Source of the DNA: Escherichia coli
Lineage (GTDB): Bacteria; Pseudomonadota; Gammaproteobacteria; Enterobacterales; Enterobacteriaceae
Length of the DNA stretch: 64,000 bases
NCBI RefSeq assembly: GCF_046105845.1
Contig: NZ_CP151004.1
Reading direction: 5' to 3' (one strand)
Shown here: one piece after another, positions 9,750-60,900 of the stretch
Layout of the letters: each line of letters opens with the position of its first letter
Position numbering within the stretch: the first letter of the stretch is position 1
Translations under genes and position numbers: made by a program
Notes under the pieces: model-generated
What the model saw: only the letters and a program-made list of their open reading frames with translations
Database searches by the model: none
Told to the model about the DNA's origin: nothing

Positions 9750-9824
9750 ATTTATTAGATCAGGTGTGACCTGACCCATCTTTGGCACAGAGCCAAACCT
9801 GAACTGACGGACCGCTCTGTGCCA

Positions 9825-10130
9825 TTACCTGACGTTGTATTCTTTTATGTTAACACCCTTGATACTGTATATACCTGTCCGCTTAATTCGCTTGCCCTTT
9901 TTATTCGTAATAGTTGCTGTAAGTGTACTGCAGCGAATGGAATGACGTTCATCAATCACCAGCCGAATTGCTTCTGAAGCATCTTCCACCTCTAGAAGGT
10001 CGTGAGTCTTATTTAAGCCGAATGGAACAAGGTGGAAGGCCGTTTTTCCAGATGATTTTCTGGTTATTTTTACTGGATACAACACATCACCACTTTTATG
10101 GATTAATTCAAGCTGTTCAATGTAAATCAT
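9825..10130 (-). CDS. Hypothetical protein, 101 aa, in AT-rich segment
   Basis: ORF with AGGAA Shine-Dalgarno 8 nt upstream of ATG; about 40% GC by eye; no recognised family. Confidence 0.4.
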   Translation of the reverse strand: MIYIEQLELIHKSGDVLYPVKITRKSSGKTAFHLVPFGLNKTHDLLEVEDASEAIRLVIDERHSIRCSTLTATITNKKGKRIKRTGIYSIKGVNIKEYNVR

Positions 10131-10217
10131 GGCAACTTTCCTTCGTTTATCTGCATGAATATATAAACCGAAAATAGGAGATGCAATACAAAAGCTGTGG
10201 AAATATCAAATAGCCTC

Positions 10218-10574
10218 TCAATTTGGCAGACAGCGTCTGCCAAATCTTTGCCGATGGGAATTCTGCAGAATTTCAACATGTTGATAAAAAAGGTAAAAAA
10301 GCTTCATTTGGCGTAAGTTTTTTGCAGAGACCCCACGTTTATACCGTCGACTTAAATCCTGCGATAACCGATCAATCAGCTGTGCAGCATAAGCCGCTCT
10401 TGCCTCGCCGCCTTGTTCAAATTCGACAATTCGTCGGCCAATTTCCCAGTATGTGGCGGTCATTAACGCGTTAACACTACGTACCGTTTCCGTCCGGGCG
10501 CTATCGACCAGGTGAATAATACCGTCGTGGATTTGCTGGTAGCCTGTTGAGGTTCTCTCTGAGAGCGATTCCAT
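10218..10574 (-). pseudogene. N-terminal fragment of DUF1016/YhcG-like (PDDEXK nuclease family) protein, truncated
   Basis: 118-aa ORF with TYWEIGRRIVEFEQ...NLRQMKLFYLFY resembling the N-terminal domain of DUF1016 proteins; full-length members about 340-375 aa; C-terminal nuclease domain absent. Confidence 0.5.
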
Positions 10575-10727
10575 TATCTGTCCCTTTATATGGCGCTGCG
10601 TTGAATAATGGAATCAGCTATACGCCGGGCATCTACCGGTAACAATCCAGATGAGCGTATTACATTGGTTTTCTTCACATTATGCGAGGCACCTTCCAGC
10701 GAGGTGTCACGTTGTGGTGAAGATAAA

Positions 10728-10758
10728 TCAAAAAAGGCCGGAGCGGGCGTATCCGGCC
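10728..10758 (-). terminator. Intrinsic terminator ending the five-gene operon
   Basis: Minus strand reads GGCCGGA-TACGCCCGC-TCCGGCC followed by T-run, 8 nt after the VWA gene stop. Confidence 0.8.
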
Positions 10759-10765
10759 AGAATTT

Positions 10766-11935
10766 TCAGGCGGTTTCTCTTGCTGTCACTACGCCATTTT
10801 GCGCAGCCCACAGATTCACATCTTCCTTACGAATGGCGGCGGCCATCATGCCGGGGAATAAATCTGGGGTACAGGCAAAGGAGGGAATACCCATGGCGGC
10901 GAGTTTTCCTGCCAGTGACCGGTCGTAAAACGGCGCACCTTCATCGCTTAAGGCCAGCAGGGTAACCACCTGTACGCCGGACTGAATCAACTCACTGGCG
11001 CGTTGCAACAGATTGCGTTCCACCCCGCCTTCGTAGAGGTCGGAAATCAGCACCAGAATGGTATTGCGCGGATCGCGAATCAAAGACTGGCAGTAGCCCA
11101 CCGCGCGGTTGATGTCGGTGCCGCCACCCAGCTGTACGCCAAACAGCAGCTCTACCGGATCGTCGAGCTTCTCTGTCATATCAACGACTGCGGTGTCGAA
11201 AACCACCAGATGCGTTTTTACCGCCGGGAGCGATGCCATTACTGCGCCAAAAATACTGGAATAGACCACCGAGGAGGCCATCGACCCACTCTGGTCGATA
11301 CATAAAATGATCTCCTTTTGCGTGCGTTGAGACTTGCGCCCGTAGCCGATCAGCGTTTCAGGAACAATACTTTTATACTCTTCCTGCCAGTGGCGCAGGT
11401 TGGCGCGAATGGTGCGCTGCCAGTCAATTTCCGCGTGGCGCGGGCGACGATTACGTACCGCACGATTAAGAGCGCCGCTTACCGCGCTACGCATTGGCTC
11501 TTCAAGCTGTTTCATCAATTGCTCGACAACTTTACGCACCACAAGCCTGGCGGTTTCTTTGGTTTTGGCCGGAATTACGCCATTCAGCGACATCAGCGTG
11601 GAGACCAGATGAACATCAGGCTGGACGTTTGCCAGCATCTCTGGCTCCAGCAGCATACTGTGCAAATTAAGACGTTCAAAGGCGTCTTTTTGCATCACCT
11701 GAACCACAGAAGAAGGGAAATACTGGCGAATATCACCCAGCCAGCGAGCGACTTTGGGTGACGATCCACCCGTGCCGCCGCGTAATCCATGTTTACCGTC
11801 TGGCTGATAGAGCGCCGCCAGCGCGGCATCAATCGCGGACTCTCTGGCATCCAGCGCCACGTTACAGGCATTGTCGGCATCTTCTCCAAGGATCAGACGC
11901 CAGCGGCGCAGCCGTTCCATTTCGTTACTCGACAT
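10766..11935 (-). CDS. VWA-domain protein with MIDAS motif (CoxE-like)
   Basis: 389 aa; DxSxS motif in ILCIDQSGSMASS and downstream VLISDLYEGG; N-terminal RWRLILGE typical of CoxE-type VWA proteins; AGGGA SD upstream; 11-nt overlap with upstream gene. Confidence 0.8.
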   Translation of the reverse strand: MSSNEMERLRRWRLILGEDADNACNVALDARESAIDAALAALYQPDGKHGLRGGTGGSSPKVARWLGDIRQYFPSSVVQVMQKDAFERLNLHSMLLEPEMLANVQPDVHLVSTLMSLNGVIPAKTKETARLVVRKVVEQLMKQLEEPMRSAVSGALNRAVRNRRPRHAEIDWQRTIRANLRHWQEEYKSIVPETLIGYGRKSQRTQKEIILCIDQSGSMASSVVYSSIFGAVMASLPAVKTHLVVFDTAVVDMTEKLDDPVELLFGVQLGGGTDINRAVGYCQSLIRDPRNTILVLISDLYEGGVERNLLQRASELIQSGVQVVTLLALSDEGAPFYDRSLAGKLAAMGIPSFACTPDLFPGMMAAAIRKEDVNLWAAQNGVVTARETA

Positions 11936-26029: not shown

Positions 26030-28366
26030 ATGAAGCAAATTCGTCTGCTGGCGCAGTATTATGTTGACCTGATGATGAAGTTAGGTCTGGTGCGCTTCTC
26101 AATGTTGCTGGCGCTGGCCCTCGTCGTTCTTGCCATTGTGGTACAAATGGCGGTAACCATGGTGCTGCATGGTCAGGTCGAAAGCATTGATGTTATTCGT
26201 TCTATCTTCTTTGGTTTGCTGATTACGCCGTGGGCGGTCTACTTTCTATCGGTGGTCGTCGAGCAACTGGAGGAGTCACGGCAACGTCTGTCACGGCTGG
26301 TGCAAAAACTGGAGGAGATGCGCGAGCGCGATTTGAGCCTCAACGTTCAGTTAAAAGATAATATTGCCCAGCTAAATCAGGAAATCGCCGTTCGTGAAAA
26401 AGCGGAAGCAGAACTGCAGGAAACCTTCGGCCAACTGAAAATTGAAATCAAAGAGCGCGAAGAGACACAAATTCAGCTCGAGCAGCAATCCTCATTCTTA
26501 CGTTCCTTCCTTGACGCTTCACCCGACCTGGTTTTTTATCGTAACGAAGATAAAGAGTTTTCCGGCTGTAACCGCGCGATGGAGCTGCTGACCGGAAAAA
26601 GCGAAAAACAACTGGTTCACCTGAAACCTGCTGATGTTTACTCACCGGAAGCCGCTGCGAAAGTCATTGAAACCGATGAAAAAGTGTTCCGTCATAATGT
26701 GTCACTGACCTATGAGCAGTGGCTGGATTATCCCGACGGACGCAAAGCCTGCTTTGAAATTCGTAAAGTGCCGTACTACGACCGCGTGGGTAAACGTCAC
26801 GGTTTGATGGGCTTTGGTCGCGACATTACCGAGCGTAAGCGGTATCAGGATGCGCTTGAACGGGCCAGCCGCGACAAAACGACGTTTATCTCCACCATCA
26901 GTCACGAATTGCGTACACCGCTGAACGGTATCGTCGGCCTGAGCCGCATCCTACTGGATACCGAACTCACCGCCGAGCAGGAAAAATATCTCAAAACCAT
27001 CCATGTTTCGGCCGTCACGCTCGGGAATATCTTCAACGATATTATCGACATGGATAAGATGGAACGGCGTAAGGTCCAGCTTGATAATCAGCCGGTTGAT
27101 TTCACCAGCTTCCTTGCCGATCTGGAAAATCTCTCCGCATTGCAGGCGCAACAAAAAGGATTGCGCTTTAATCTGGAGCCTACGCTGCCATTACCGCATC
27201 AGGTCATTACCGACGGGACGCGTTTACGGCAGATCCTGTGGAACCTCATCAGTAACGCCGTCAAATTCACCCAGCAAGGCCAGGTTACTGTGCGCGTGCG
27301 CTACGATGAAGGCGATATGCTGCATTTTGAAGTGGAAGACTCTGGTATCGGCATTCCGCAAGATGAGCTGGATAAAATCTTCGCCATGTATTACCAGGTG
27401 AAAGACAGTCATGGCGGTAAACCTGCCACCGGCACCGGTATTGGTCTGGCCGTTTCTCGTCGTCTGGCGAAAAATATGGGCGGCGATATTACGGTTACCA
27501 GCGAACAGGGCAAAGGTTCAACCTTTACGTTGACGATCCACGCACCGTCGGTAGCAGAAGAGGTTGATGATGCGTTTGATGAAGACGATATGCCTTTACC
27601 GGCGCTGAATGTGCTGCTGGTGGAAGATATTGAACTGAACGTGATTGTCGCACGCTCTGTGCTGGAAAAATTAGGTAACAGCGTTGATGTCGCCATGACC
27701 GGCAAGGCGGCGCTGGAAATGTTTAAACCGGGCGAATACGACCTGGTGTTGCTGGATATTCAGTTGCCAGATATGACCGGGCTGGATATCTCTCGTGAAC
27801 TGACGAAGCGTTATCCGCGCGAGGATTTACCGCCGCTGGTGGCCTTAACCGCTAACGTGCTGAAAGACAAGCAAGAGTACCTCAATGCTGGAATGGATGA
27901 TGTGCTGAGTAAGCCGCTTTCTGTTCCGGCGCTAACCGCGATGATCAAGAAATTCTGGGATACCCAGGATGATGAGGAAAGTACGGTGACGACAGAAGAG
28001 AACAGTAAATCAGAAGCATTGCTCGATATTCCCATGCTGGAACAGTATCTCGAACTTGTAGGACCGAAGCTGATCACCGACGGGTTAGCGGTGTTTGAGA
28101 AGATGATGCCGGGCTATGTCAGCGTGCTGGAGTCGAATCTGACGGCGCAGGATAAAAAAGGCATTGTTGAGGAAGGACATAAAATTAAAGGTGCGGCGGG
28201 GTCAGTGGGGTTACGCCATCTGCAACAGCTGGGTCAGCAAATTCAGTCTCCTGACCTTCCCGCCTGGGAAGATAACGTCGGTGAATGGATTGAAGAGATG
28301 AAAGAAGAGTGGCGTCACGACGTAGAAGTGCTGAAAGCGTGGGTGGCAAAAGCCACTAAAAAATGA
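26030..28366 (+). CDS. arcB: Aerobic respiration control sensor histidine kinase
   Basis: 778-aa ORF with two N-terminal TM segments, HisKA motif (SHELRTP), receiver and HPt domains. Confidence 0.95.
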   Translation: MKQIRLLAQYYVDLMMKLGLVRFSMLLALALVVLAIVVQMAVTMVLHGQVESIDVIRSIFFGLLITPWAVYFLSVVVEQLEESRQRLSRLVQKLEEMRERDLSLNVQLKDNIAQLNQEIAVREKAEAELQETFGQLKIEIKEREETQIQLEQQSSFLRSFLDASPDLVFYRNEDKEFSGCNRAMELLTGKSEKQLVHLKPADVYSPEAAAKVIETDEKVFRHNVSLTYEQWLDYPDGRKACFEIRKVPYYDRVGKRHGLMGFGRDITERKRYQDALERASRDKTTFISTISHELRTPLNGIVGLSRILLDTELTAEQEKYLKTIHVSAVTLGNIFNDIIDMDKMERRKVQLDNQPVDFTSFLADLENLSALQAQQKGLRFNLEPTLPLPHQVITDGTRLRQILWNLISNAVKFTQQGQVTVRVRYDEGDMLHFEVEDSGIGIPQDELDKIFAMYYQVKDSHGGKPATGTGIGLAVSRRLAKNMGGDITVTSEQGKGSTFTLTIHAPSVAEEVDDAFDEDDMPLPALNVLLVEDIELNVIVARSVLEKLGNSVDVAMTGKAALEMFKPGEYDLVLLDIQLPDMTGLDISRELTKRYPREDLPPLVALTANVLKDKQEYLNAGMDDVLSKPLSVPALTAMIKKFWDTQDDEESTVTTEENSKSEALLDIPMLEQYLELVGPKLITDGLAVFEKMMPGYVSVLESNLTAQDKKGIVEEGHKIKGAAGSVGLRHLQQLGQQIQSPDLPAWEDNVGEWIEEMKEEWRHDVEVLKAWVAKATKK

Positions 28367-28478
28367 CCCCGGCTAGACCGGGGTGCGCGAATACTGCGCC
28401 AACACCAGGGAAATCTTGGCTGCGCCGTAAATTATTATGATGAGTTACAAGGGCACAGCACTGTTTTTCAGGCCGCAC
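28358..28478 (-). ncRNA. arcZ: ArcZ small RNA (Hfq-dependent)
   Basis: Minus strand reads GTGCGGCCTGAAAAACAG...CCCCGGTCTAGCCGGGGTCATTTTTT, matching recalled ArcZ; terminator overlaps arcB stop codon; about 121 nt. Confidence 0.8.
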
Positions 28479-28595
28479 GCAGTTAAGATAGCAAAACTTA
28501 AATGATTTGTTACATGAATCAGTTAAATGTGTGATGCGTAGCATTTTTATTAAAAAAATTAATGTGTTTCAGTCAATTGCGAAAGGATGATCACA

Positions 28596-29249
28596 ATGAA
28601 GAAAATTGGCGTAATTCTGAGCGGATGCGGCGTCTATGACGGTTCTGAAATTCATGAAGCGGTGTTGACGTTGTTAGCTATTTCACGCAGCGGTGCGCAG
28701 GCGGTCTGCTTTGCACCGGATAAGCAGCAGGTTGATGTTATCAACCATTTAACGGGCGAAGCGATGACGGAAACGCGCAATGTGCTGATTGAAGCGGCAC
28801 GAATAACGCGCGGTGAAATCCGTCCTCTGGCTCAGGCCGATGCCGCTGAACTGGATGCGTTGATTGTGCCGGGGGGGTTTGGCGCGGCGAAGAATTTAAG
28901 CAATTTTGCCAGTCTTGGTAGCGAATGCACCGTTGACCGTGAATTAAAGGCGCTGGCACAAGCGATGCATCAGGCCGGAAAACCGCTTGGTTTTATGTGT
29001 ATTGCCCCGGCGATGCTGCCGAAAATTTTCGATTTCCCGCTGCGTTTGACCATCGGTACTGATATCGATACCGCAGAAGTGCTGGAAGAGATGGGCGCGG
29101 AGCATGTGCCGTGTCCTGTCGATGATATCGTGGTTGATGAAGACAATAAGATTGTCACCACCCCGGCATATATGCTGGCGCAGAACATTGCAGAAGCGGC
29201 GAGCGGCATTGATAAGCTGATTTCCCGCGTGCTGGTTCTGGCTGAATGA
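28596..29249 (+). CDS. elbB: DJ-1/PfpI-family protein ElbB
   Basis: Start at [21 protein letters not shown] gives 217 aa. Confidence 0.88.
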
Positions 29250-29974
29250 GTAAAAGCCGCTTAACGGTGTTTAGTTTCATTCGCCGTTTTCTTCTGCGGT
29301 TAATGGTTGTCCTCGCCGTTTTCTGGGGCGGGGGCATCGCGTTGTTTAGCGTTGCGCCTGTTCCTTTCTCAGCGGTAATGGCCGAGCGACAAGTCAGCGC
29401 CTGGCTGCATGGCAATTTTCGTTACGTGGCACATTCTGACTGGGTCAGTATGGATCAAATTTCGCCGTGGATGGGACTGGCGGTGATTGCCGCAGAAGAT
29501 CAGAAGTTTCCTGAGCACTGGGGCTTTGATGTCGCCTCCATTGAGCAAGCCCTGGCCCACAACGAGCGCAATGAAAACCGTATTCGCGGTGCGTCAACGA
29601 TTTCTCAGCAGACAGCCAAAAATCTCTTTTTATGGGATGGGCGTAGCTGGGTTCGAAAAGGGCTGGAAGCTGGATTAACGCTGGGGATAGAAACAGTCTG
29701 GAGCAAAAAGCGTATCCTGACGGTTTACCTGAATATCGCCGAATTTGGCGACGGTGTGTTTGGCGTCGAAGCTGCGGCACAACGTTATTTCCACAAACCC
29801 GCGAGCAAACTTACCCGGTCGGAAGCTGCATTACTGGCAGCTGTATTACCTAATCCACTTCGTTTCAAAGTCTCCGCGCCATCGGGCTACGTGCGTGGCC
29901 GTCAGGCGTGGATTTTACGGCAGATGTATCAGTTAGGCGGTGAGTCGTTTATGCAACAGCACCAGCTGGATTAA
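29246..29974 (+). CDS. mtgA: Monofunctional peptidoglycan glycosyltransferase
   Basis: 242-aa ORF with N-terminal TM and transglycosylase motifs; ATGA overlap with elbB. Confidence 0.9.
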
Positions 29975-30603
29975 GCTTCGCGCGAAGTGAGGGCCAGCGT
30001 TTTGCTCTCACGAGGTTGCAGATCTTTCTGCAGGGCAATAGCCAGCGCCGGTTGGGCGATAAATCGTTTCCATAACCGCTCTTGCTTACGCAGACAACAC
30101 CACTTCGACCAGGTCGCCAGTGGAATCAATGTGCTTTCACCAATGTTGTCGCAGACGACTGGGATAACCTCTGACTCACTGATGCGGTGACAGAGGATAT
30201 TCTGCGGCTTCAGCGACATCGTCACGATACGGTTATCCTGCAAATAACGCTTCAGCTGTTTCAGTAACTGGCGCAGTTGTGCAATGTCTTCTTCGTAACG
30301 GCATTGTTCTGCAAATTCGGTCAGCGTAATGGAAGGCTTGCCGTCGAAATCGGCAATCACATCGTAGACATAACCGGTTCCGCAATCCGTCTCAACGGTA
30401 CCGTGATAGCGCGGTATTCCACTCCAGTCTTTTAACCGGCGACCAAGATGCGCGTAGTACTTTAACTCACGGCGGATCTCTTTATCGCCACCATCGCCAC
30501 GATGGTAGACAATCTTGATACAGCGTTGGGCATCTTCCGGATGCGCATAACATTTCCGATGTCTTCCGGTGCCCAGGGGACTTTGTTCAGATAAGCGAAT
30601 CAT
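29971..30603 (-). CDS. yrbL: Uncharacterised protein YrbL
   Basis: 210-aa ORF matching YrbL length and position. Confidence 0.8.
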
Positions 30604-30815
30604 GCCATCTCCTGGAAATATTTTCTGACGATCTCCAGTATGGTCGATTAACTTAAACGAAACCTAAACAATGCTTCTTAAGGTTTTCTTAAGGTTCTTC
30701 TGAAAGTAAAAAGCGCACGAAATGTACAATTGACGTTGATTGAGAACGATTTCAGTACGCGCTTTTCTTATTGCCGGGGGAGCTTGAAGGGATTTGAATG
30801 TCAAAGTGATGAAGA

Positions 30816-49946: not shown

Positions 49947-50065
49947 AATCTCGCGCTAACAACCTGGAATCGAGCCGTCATACTACGGCGCAACGCCCTA
50001 TAAAGTAAACGATGACCCTTCGGGAACTTCAGGGTAAAATGACTATCAAAATGTGAATTGTAGCT

Positions 50066-50099
50066 GACCTGGGACTTGTACCCGGGTCGGTATTTTTTT
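50066..50099 (+). promoter_or_regulatory. greA leader intrinsic terminator (GraL-type attenuator)
   Basis: gacctggg/cccgggtc hairpin followed by T7 run about 95 nt upstream of greA start; matches the known leader terminator that yields the GraL RNA. Confidence 0.55.
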
Positions 50100-56750: not shown

Positions 56751-56837
56751 GCCGAGGTGGTGGAATTGGTAGACACGCTACCTTGAGGTGGTAGTGCCCA
56801 ATAGGGCTTACGGGTTCAAGTCCCGTCCTCGGTACCA
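56751..56837 (+). tRNA. leuU: tRNA-Leu
   Basis: 87-nt sequence GCCGAGGTGGTGGAATTGGTAGACACGCTACCTTGAGGTGGTAG...GGTTCAAGTCCCGTCCTCGGTACCA with long variable arm, ending in CCA. Confidence 0.93.
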
Positions 56838-60617: not shown

Positions 60618-60694
<77 letters not shown>

Positions 60695-60817
60695 CTTTCC
60701 CTTAGAGTCCTTTTTCAAATATACTGTGAAGACTTCGGCCTTCGTAGTGGGATTTGAAAAAATCCTTCTGGAAAGTGCTCCAGACCGCAGTTGCGGTTAT
60801 AGGGTTCAGTTATATAA

Positions 60818-60843
60818 AGCCCCGATTTATCGGGGTTTTTTGT
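60818..60843 (+). terminator. Partial terminator between metY and rimP
   Basis: agccccga/tcggggtt hairpin followed by T-run. Confidence 0.7.
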
Positions 60844-60900
60844 TATCTGACTACAGAATAACTGGGCTTTAGGCCCTTTTTTTATGTCTTGGGGGTGGGC

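Follow-up and report, generated by a model that had tools for sequence, protein, structure and literature searches.

The arcZ small RNA gene opposite the 3' end of arcB in a segment of the Escherichia coli chromosome

Opposite the 3' end of arcB, a stretch of Escherichia coli DNA of 64,000 nucleotides (nt) (NCBI RefSeq assembly GCF_046105845.1, contig NZ_CP151004.1; the window, with positions counted from its first letter) carries at 28358..28478 on the minus strand what is almost certainly the gene for ArcZ, the Hfq-dependent trans-acting small RNA (sRNA) of Enterobacterales. Searching the whole window against Rfam 15, we obtained a match to the ArcZ covariance model RF00081 that runs from 28478 to 28371 on the minus strand only, with a score of 120.8 bits (E = 4.1e-27). 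The gathering score of the family is 66, and the match spans model positions 1-106 of 106. In both sequence and extent, 28358..28478 is the noncoding RNA arcZ b4450 of MG1655 (NC_000913.3, 3350577..3350697), and 237 aligned nt around the sRNA, including the putative promoter and the terminator, are 100% identical between the window and MG1655. A preliminary description, prepared from the letters of this DNA, had placed ArcZ at this position on the strand opposite arcB and proposed alignment to the Rfam model as the check; the placement is confirmed by the Rfam match and the b4450 identity, and the score lies well above the family threshold.

The arcZ gene and its overlap with arcB

The elements that make up the junction of the two genes are as follows.

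28358..28478, minus strand: arcZ gene (ArcZ / SraH / RyhA), full-length 121-nt primary transcript, from MG1655 identity and the Rfam match
26030..28366, plus strand: arcB coding sequence (CDS), 778 amino acids (aa), ending in ATKK, with stop codon TGA at 28364..28366; convergent partner of arcZ
28358..28366, unstranded: overlap of arcZ and the arcB CDS, 9 nt, in window coordinates
28366..28384, minus strand: terminator hairpin ACCCCGGU-CUA-GCCGGGGU, 8 pairs (6 G-C) and a loop of 3
28358..28363, minus strand: terminator U-run (U6), complement of the arcB Lys777-Lys778 codons AAA AAA; putative 3' Hfq-binding tail

The arrangement is that of E. coli K-12, in which ArcZ (b4450) has the same 121 nt, the same ends, putative promoter and terminator, a convergent arcB with a 9-nt overlap and elbB on the opposite side. 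The sRNA itself shows no difference, whereas the host strain does, with ~98% identity across the window and another gene island at 9750..18439. Within the species, 5416 of 5426 complete genomes carry the 501-base-pair (bp) arcZ locus with an identity of at least 95%, and 5396 with 99% or more. No arcZ feature stands between arcB and elbB in the PGAP-annotated RefSeq E. coli record NZ_CP023820.1, whereas the feature is present in the curated NC_000913.3, so that some routine annotations, at least, omit the sRNA.

In the MG1655 annotation, arcB (3350689..3353025) overlaps arcZ by the same 9 nt. Read on the minus strand, the arcZ 3' end is ACCCCGGU-CUA-GCCGGGGU-CAUUUUUU, the tail CAUUUUUU corresponding to 28365..28358, so that an 8-bp stem followed by a U tail forms the rho-independent terminator characteristic of the ArcZ family. 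The UCA at 28364..28366 is the complement of the arcB stop codon. The hairpin has its G-C core (28367..28383) outside arcB, 3' of the stop, and touches arcB only with the closing A-U pair of the stem, at the A of TGA. That the terminator overlaps the arcB stop codon, as had been proposed, is thus correct for the 9-nt overlap and also appears in the literature. The accompanying statement that the 3' hairpin and T-run are the reverse complement of the last arcB codons is accurate for the T-run but not for the hairpin, the G-C core of which is past the stop. Because the RF00081 model stops inside the hairpin, the terminator was tested separately; its support comes from its location at the 3' end of the Rfam match, its conservation across 120 species and its covariation.

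The plus strand looks different. Directly after the hairpin it reads TGCGCGAATA (UGCGCGAAUA in a longer reading), and our terminator scan found no terminator-like site on this strand between the arcB stop and 29736. The first plus-strand candidate past arcB is weak and lies inside mtgA (29736..29751). With no plus-strand terminator after arcB, transcription of arcB probably continues across arcZ, which would give an mRNA with a long complement to ArcZ, and the same scan suggests that read-through may extend into elbB-mtgA.

Conservation across Enterobacterales

Using an exact search for the ArcZ core 25-mer (nt 73-97) with one genome per species, we identified at least 120 loci, all of them in Enterobacterales. 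The sampled genera include Escherichia, Salmonella, Citrobacter, Enterobacter, Klebsiella, Yersinia and Rahnella, as well as Erwinia, Pantoea, Photorhabdus, Xenorhabdus, Proteus, Providencia and Morganella. The sample consists of species with an exact 25-mer match, which are phylogenetically non-independent, and 115 loci, the present window included, had enough flanking sequence to be usable. Among the matches listed, an arcB-like open reading frame (ORF) converges on ArcZ at every usable locus (115/115). Adjacency to a convergent arcB is a property of the ArcZ family, and the window has it, with arcB at 26030..28366 on the plus strand facing arcZ at 28358..28478 on the minus strand. At 97 of the 115 loci, arcB ends in AAA AAA T(G/A)A directly against the terminator stem; the stop-codon complement starts 14-17 nt past the 25-mer, and the T-run that follows it directly has a length of 6, 7 or 8. 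Roughly 18 loci (in Pantoea, Mixta, Morganella, Pluralibacter, Chimaeribacter and others) have a displaced arcB stop, and with it a different overlap, yet none of them has lost the hairpin, the U-run or the U(C/U)A. Retention of these elements without the adjacent arcB stop shows that the terminator is part of the minus-strand RNA.

The overlap may also leave a mark on the codons of arcB. At the 96 loci with a clean reading frame, the terminal two Lys codons of arcB are AAA in 192 of 192 cases, and AAA accounts for 65% (969/1484) of the internal Lys codons of these arcB segments. That no other Lys codon is used at the end of arcB is consistent with a U-run that constrains synonymous sites, although we attach no probability to this comparison, the species being related.

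28380..28412, minus strand: invariant core, ArcZ nt 67-99, including the single-stranded seed UUCCCUGGUGUUG, from an alignment of 112 distinct sequences

The conserved 3' part with its seed, a further property of the family, is found here as nt 67-99, which do not vary among the 112 distinct sequences; nt 73-97 are invariant by design of the search, so that the independent evidence is confined to nt 67-72 and 98-99. In the 112-sequence MAFFT alignment the 5' half of ArcZ is variable, with many insertions and deletions (indels) whose lengths are not multiples of three. In 111 distinct sequences, 99.8% of the cells of the terminator stem are paired, with compensatory changes in three of the eight pairs (58 cells). 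None of 500 shuffles reached this covariation, and controls in which the stem was slid pair at 28-45%. RNAalifold recovered a small hairpin (GCGC/GCGC) together with a 7-pair terminator stem. The ArcZ orthologues of Salmonella, Erwinia, Dickeya, Photorhabdus, Xenorhabdus, Yersinia, Proteus and others share the invariant 3' core, the terminator, the U-run and the convergent arcB, whereas their 5' halves are not alike in sequence or length and pairs of their terminator stems have been exchanged in a compensatory way, as from GG/CC to AA/UU. In Pectobacterium carotovorum the arcZ/arcB overlap is reported to be absent (PMC11331407).

These patterns bear on two other explanations for the conserved sequence. 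It might be the 3' untranslated region (UTR) of arcB with its terminator and no gene on the opposite strand, given that it directly follows the arcB stop and that the hairpin could form in an arcB transcript too. We consider this highly improbable for several reasons: (i) The T-run follows the hairpin on the minus strand only, whereas the plus strand has TGCGCGAATA in its place and no terminator was called there. (ii) The covariance model matches the minus strand only. (iii) The conserved -35-like and extended -10-like elements described below face the minus direction at the correct distance. (iv) The hairpin and T-run persist in the ~18 species in which the arcB stop has moved. (v) A discrete minus-strand RNA has been published for K-12.

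It might also encode a small protein, either from a minus-strand ORF of 62 aa (28356..28544) or as a leaderless product of 40 aa that starts at the GTG at 28478. The 62-aa ORF is present in the mechanical ORF list, and the annotated 5' end is a GTG in frame with it. The preliminary description had called ArcZ invisible to that list, which is not quite so, since this spurious ORF covers the locus. We rejected the coding reading in both its forms, to which we give almost no credence, because the frame is not conserved and the conservation is of the RNA type. An in-frame stop codon occurs within the 78 nt upstream of the core in 88 of 112 homologues (the median open length is 10 codons), the indels of the 5' half do not come in multiples of three, the core is perfect at the nucleotide level and the stem changes in a compensatory manner; moreover, the annotated 5' end is downstream of the ATG at 28544. 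We return, then, to the ArcZ gene, and to the structure and expression that its sequence predicts.

RNA structure, processing and promoter

Hfq binds the 121-nt ArcZ, and cleavage by RNase E yields a 3' fragment of 56 nt, the active form (PMC11331407, PMC4152358). Three features of the RNA can be placed in the window.

28358..28413, minus strand: processed 56-nt form, ArcZ nt 66-121; length from the literature, position deduced
28419..28459, minus strand: 5' stem-loop, nt 20-27 GCUGUGCC paired with nt 53-60 GGCGCAGC, from the Rfam consensus; variable part, removed by processing
28385..28399, minus strand: small hairpin GCGC-AGUAUUC-GCGC, nt 80-94, from Rfam, RNAalifold and folding

Counting 56 nt from the 3' end would place the RNase E cut between A65 and U66, that is, between GA and UUU, where the sequence is A/U-rich and single-stranded in the Rfam structure. 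The predicted fold of the 56-nt form has a single-stranded 5' seed of 14 nt followed by two hairpins. All four pairs of the small hairpin are invariant, and covariation is therefore uninformative for it. The 5' stem was not recovered by RNAalifold on the MAFFT alignment of 112 sequences because the variable 5' half is poorly aligned. In minimum-free-energy folds of the individual sequences, a helix of at least 5 bp ends 4-6 nt before UUUCCC in 77 of the 112, with 50 different arm sequences; 26% of shuffled controls pass the same test, which makes it moderately supportive. ArcZ contains two copies of the heptamer GGCGCAG, one at nt 53-59 (28420..28426, minus strand) and one at nt 79-85 (28394..28400, minus strand).

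Upstream of the 5' end we identified a putative promoter by its spacing and its conservation across species, the transcription start being taken from the literature.

28485..28493, minus strand: extended -10-like element TGC-TATCTT, with its hexamer (28485..28490) at -12..-7 from the 5' end at 28478, from sequence and conservation
28508..28513, minus strand: -35-like hexamer GTAACA, 17-nt spacer to the -10, from sequence, inside the conserved block
28507..28534, minus strand: conserved upstream block TCACACATTTAACTGATTCATGTAACAA, 28 nt, candidate operator overlapping the -35, nearly invariant in 21 Enterobacteriaceae

The -35-like and extended -10-like elements are invariant in the 21 Enterobacteriaceae.

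Several observations weigh against the ArcZ assignment or against parts of the picture drawn above: (i) Taken alone, a simple terminator scan is at chance level, with 1 site versus 1.1 expected in shuffles. (ii) The full-length minimum-free-energy fold of the E. coli RNA is without the Rfam 5' stem, the 5' arm pairing with the second GGCGCAG. (iii) A sigma-70 consensus scan called no promoter in 28000..28900 or in 28300..30700. (iv) A search with the 15-bp ArcA consensus GTTAATTAAATGTTA, allowing at most three mismatches, gave no match near the arcZ promoter. (v) In the chromatin immunoprecipitation sequencing (ChIP-seq) data of Park et al. 2013, there is no ArcA site upstream of arcZ (PMC3798270). 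(vi) Transcription, processing and Hfq binding in the present strain are predictions from its identity with K-12. For the third point there is a simple explanation, in that the promoter elements match 8 of 12 positions and the threshold of the scan was 9 of 12. As to the second, an alternative fold onto the core GGCGCAG might mask the active region before RNase E cleavage and could be one reason why unprocessed ArcZ is reported to be inactive.

The ArcA results concern regulation. The only match to the ArcA consensus in the window, at 19473, is at chance level. The consensus search thus lends no support to repression by phosphorylated ArcA (ArcA-P) at the arcZ promoter, which is a regulatory property and does not define the family. 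Genetic dependence of arcZ on ArcA has been reported (PMC11331407, PMC6895013); direct binding of ArcA at the arcZ promoter is doubtful. The block at 28507..28534 is a candidate operator, judging by its conservation, for another factor or for ArcA at a non-canonical site.

The sixth point raises the case of a decayed or pseudo copy of ArcZ, now silent in this strain. One could cite for it that the window is not K-12, its overall identity being ~98%, and that a different island of genes lies 10 kb from arcZ. The chance of such a copy is negligible, since sRNA, putative promoter and terminator are 100% identical to MG1655 over 237 nt and 5396 E. coli genomes have the locus with an identity of 99% or more.

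Mutual regulation and genomic setting

The preliminary description had also stated that ArcZ and arcB regulate each other, and here the literature bears it out (PMC11331407, PMC4152358, PMC3937726, PMC4281340). The overlap of arcZ with arcB and the tail-to-tail position of the ArcZ terminator have been described (PMC11331407). ArcB/ArcA represses arcZ under low oxygen (PMC11331407, PMC4152358, PMC6895013). ArcZ in turn destabilises arcB mRNA by pairing with the 3' UTR and with 6 coding nt before the stop (PMC4281340), and arcB mRNA is thought to act reciprocally on ArcZ (PMC11331407, PMC3937726, PMC4281340). Among its trans targets, ArcZ activates translation of rpoS (PMC4152358, PMC3937726), and it represses flhDC, sdaC, tpx and others according to the literature, the seed of the 56-nt fragment pairing with target mRNAs. 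With ArcB/ArcA lowering arcZ at low oxygen and ArcZ lowering arcB mRNA, the two form a mutually negative switch. Read-through arcB mRNA, with its long complement to ArcZ, could explain how cis-antisense regulation works in both directions despite a gene overlap of 9 nt. Going further, we offer tentatively, and regard as rather unlikely, a proposal in which the 9-nt overlap is a dual-coded element, its U-run, the putative Hfq-binding tail, locking the ArcB Lys-Lys to AAA AAA, and arcB read-through or antisense pairing, as opposed to ArcA-P at the promoter, is one of the main routes for the lowering of ArcZ by the Arc system. The suggestion of such a route arises because arcB has no terminator of its own and the arcZ promoter has neither an ArcA box nor a ChIP peak.

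Like GadY, which overlaps gadX, and other cis-encoded sRNAs that overlap the 3' end of a convergent mRNA, ArcZ lies tail to tail with a regulator gene, is complementary to its 3' UTR and acts on the stability of the mRNA (PMC4281340). The reported effects are opposite, GadY increasing the stability of gadX mRNA and ArcZ decreasing that of arcB mRNA. A further difference is that ArcZ acts mainly in trans, as an Hfq sRNA whose many targets are unlinked to it. DsrA and RprA share with ArcZ the reported function on the rpoS leader (PMC4152358, PMC3937726), but their sequences and loci are unrelated to it and they have no cis-antisense partner. Of the three, ArcZ alone needs processing by RNase E, to its active 56-nt form.

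Outside the arcZ locus, we considered whether the window as a whole is MG1655 and rejected this, as the two sequences do not agree base by base, megablast gives ~98% identity in the flanking blocks and a non-K-12 island occupies ~9750..18439. The island (9750..18439, 8.7 kb) stands in place of the K-12 fimbrial genes yhcA-yhcD-yhcE::IS5-yhcF and holds five co-directional ORFs on the minus strand.

16884..18206, minus strand: island ORF, SWIM zinc finger
15283..16908, minus strand: island ORF, DUF5691
14192..15400, minus strand: island ORF, AAA_5/MoxR-like ATPase
11925..14174, minus strand: island ORF, DUF5682
10766..11935, minus strand: island ORF, VWA CoxE-like
49977..50098, 60783..60883, 56751..56834 and 60618..60691, plus strand: further above-threshold Rfam matches (greA leader, rimP leader, two tRNAs)

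At a coverage of 80% or more, the island is present in 33 of 5426 complete E. coli genomes, with a best identity of 97.6%, and a PADLOC scan of its five proteins returned no match to a defence system. The further Rfam matches are the greA leader (127.5 bits), the rimP leader (102 bits) and the two tRNAs, at the positions expected for this region of E. coli. On the far side of arcZ, the mechanical ORF of elbB starts at the ATG at 28587 (220 aa, plus strand); annotated records use the second ATG, at 28596 (217 aa), which is better spaced from the AGGA at 28583..28586.

ArcZ, its overlap with arcB and their mutual regulation are already known, having been published in 2001-2010 and reviewed in 2024. 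The present analysis makes three modest additions, namely a count, from at least 120 genomes, of the arrangement in which the stop codon abuts the hairpin (97/115 loci), the exclusive use of AAA for the last two codons of ArcB, and the lack of support, in sequence or in published ChIP-seq, for direct ArcA binding at the arcZ promoter. ArcZ connects oxygen sensing by ArcB/ArcA to RpoS (the general stress sigma factor), motility and virulence in Enterobacterales, and its recognition therefore matters for genome annotation.

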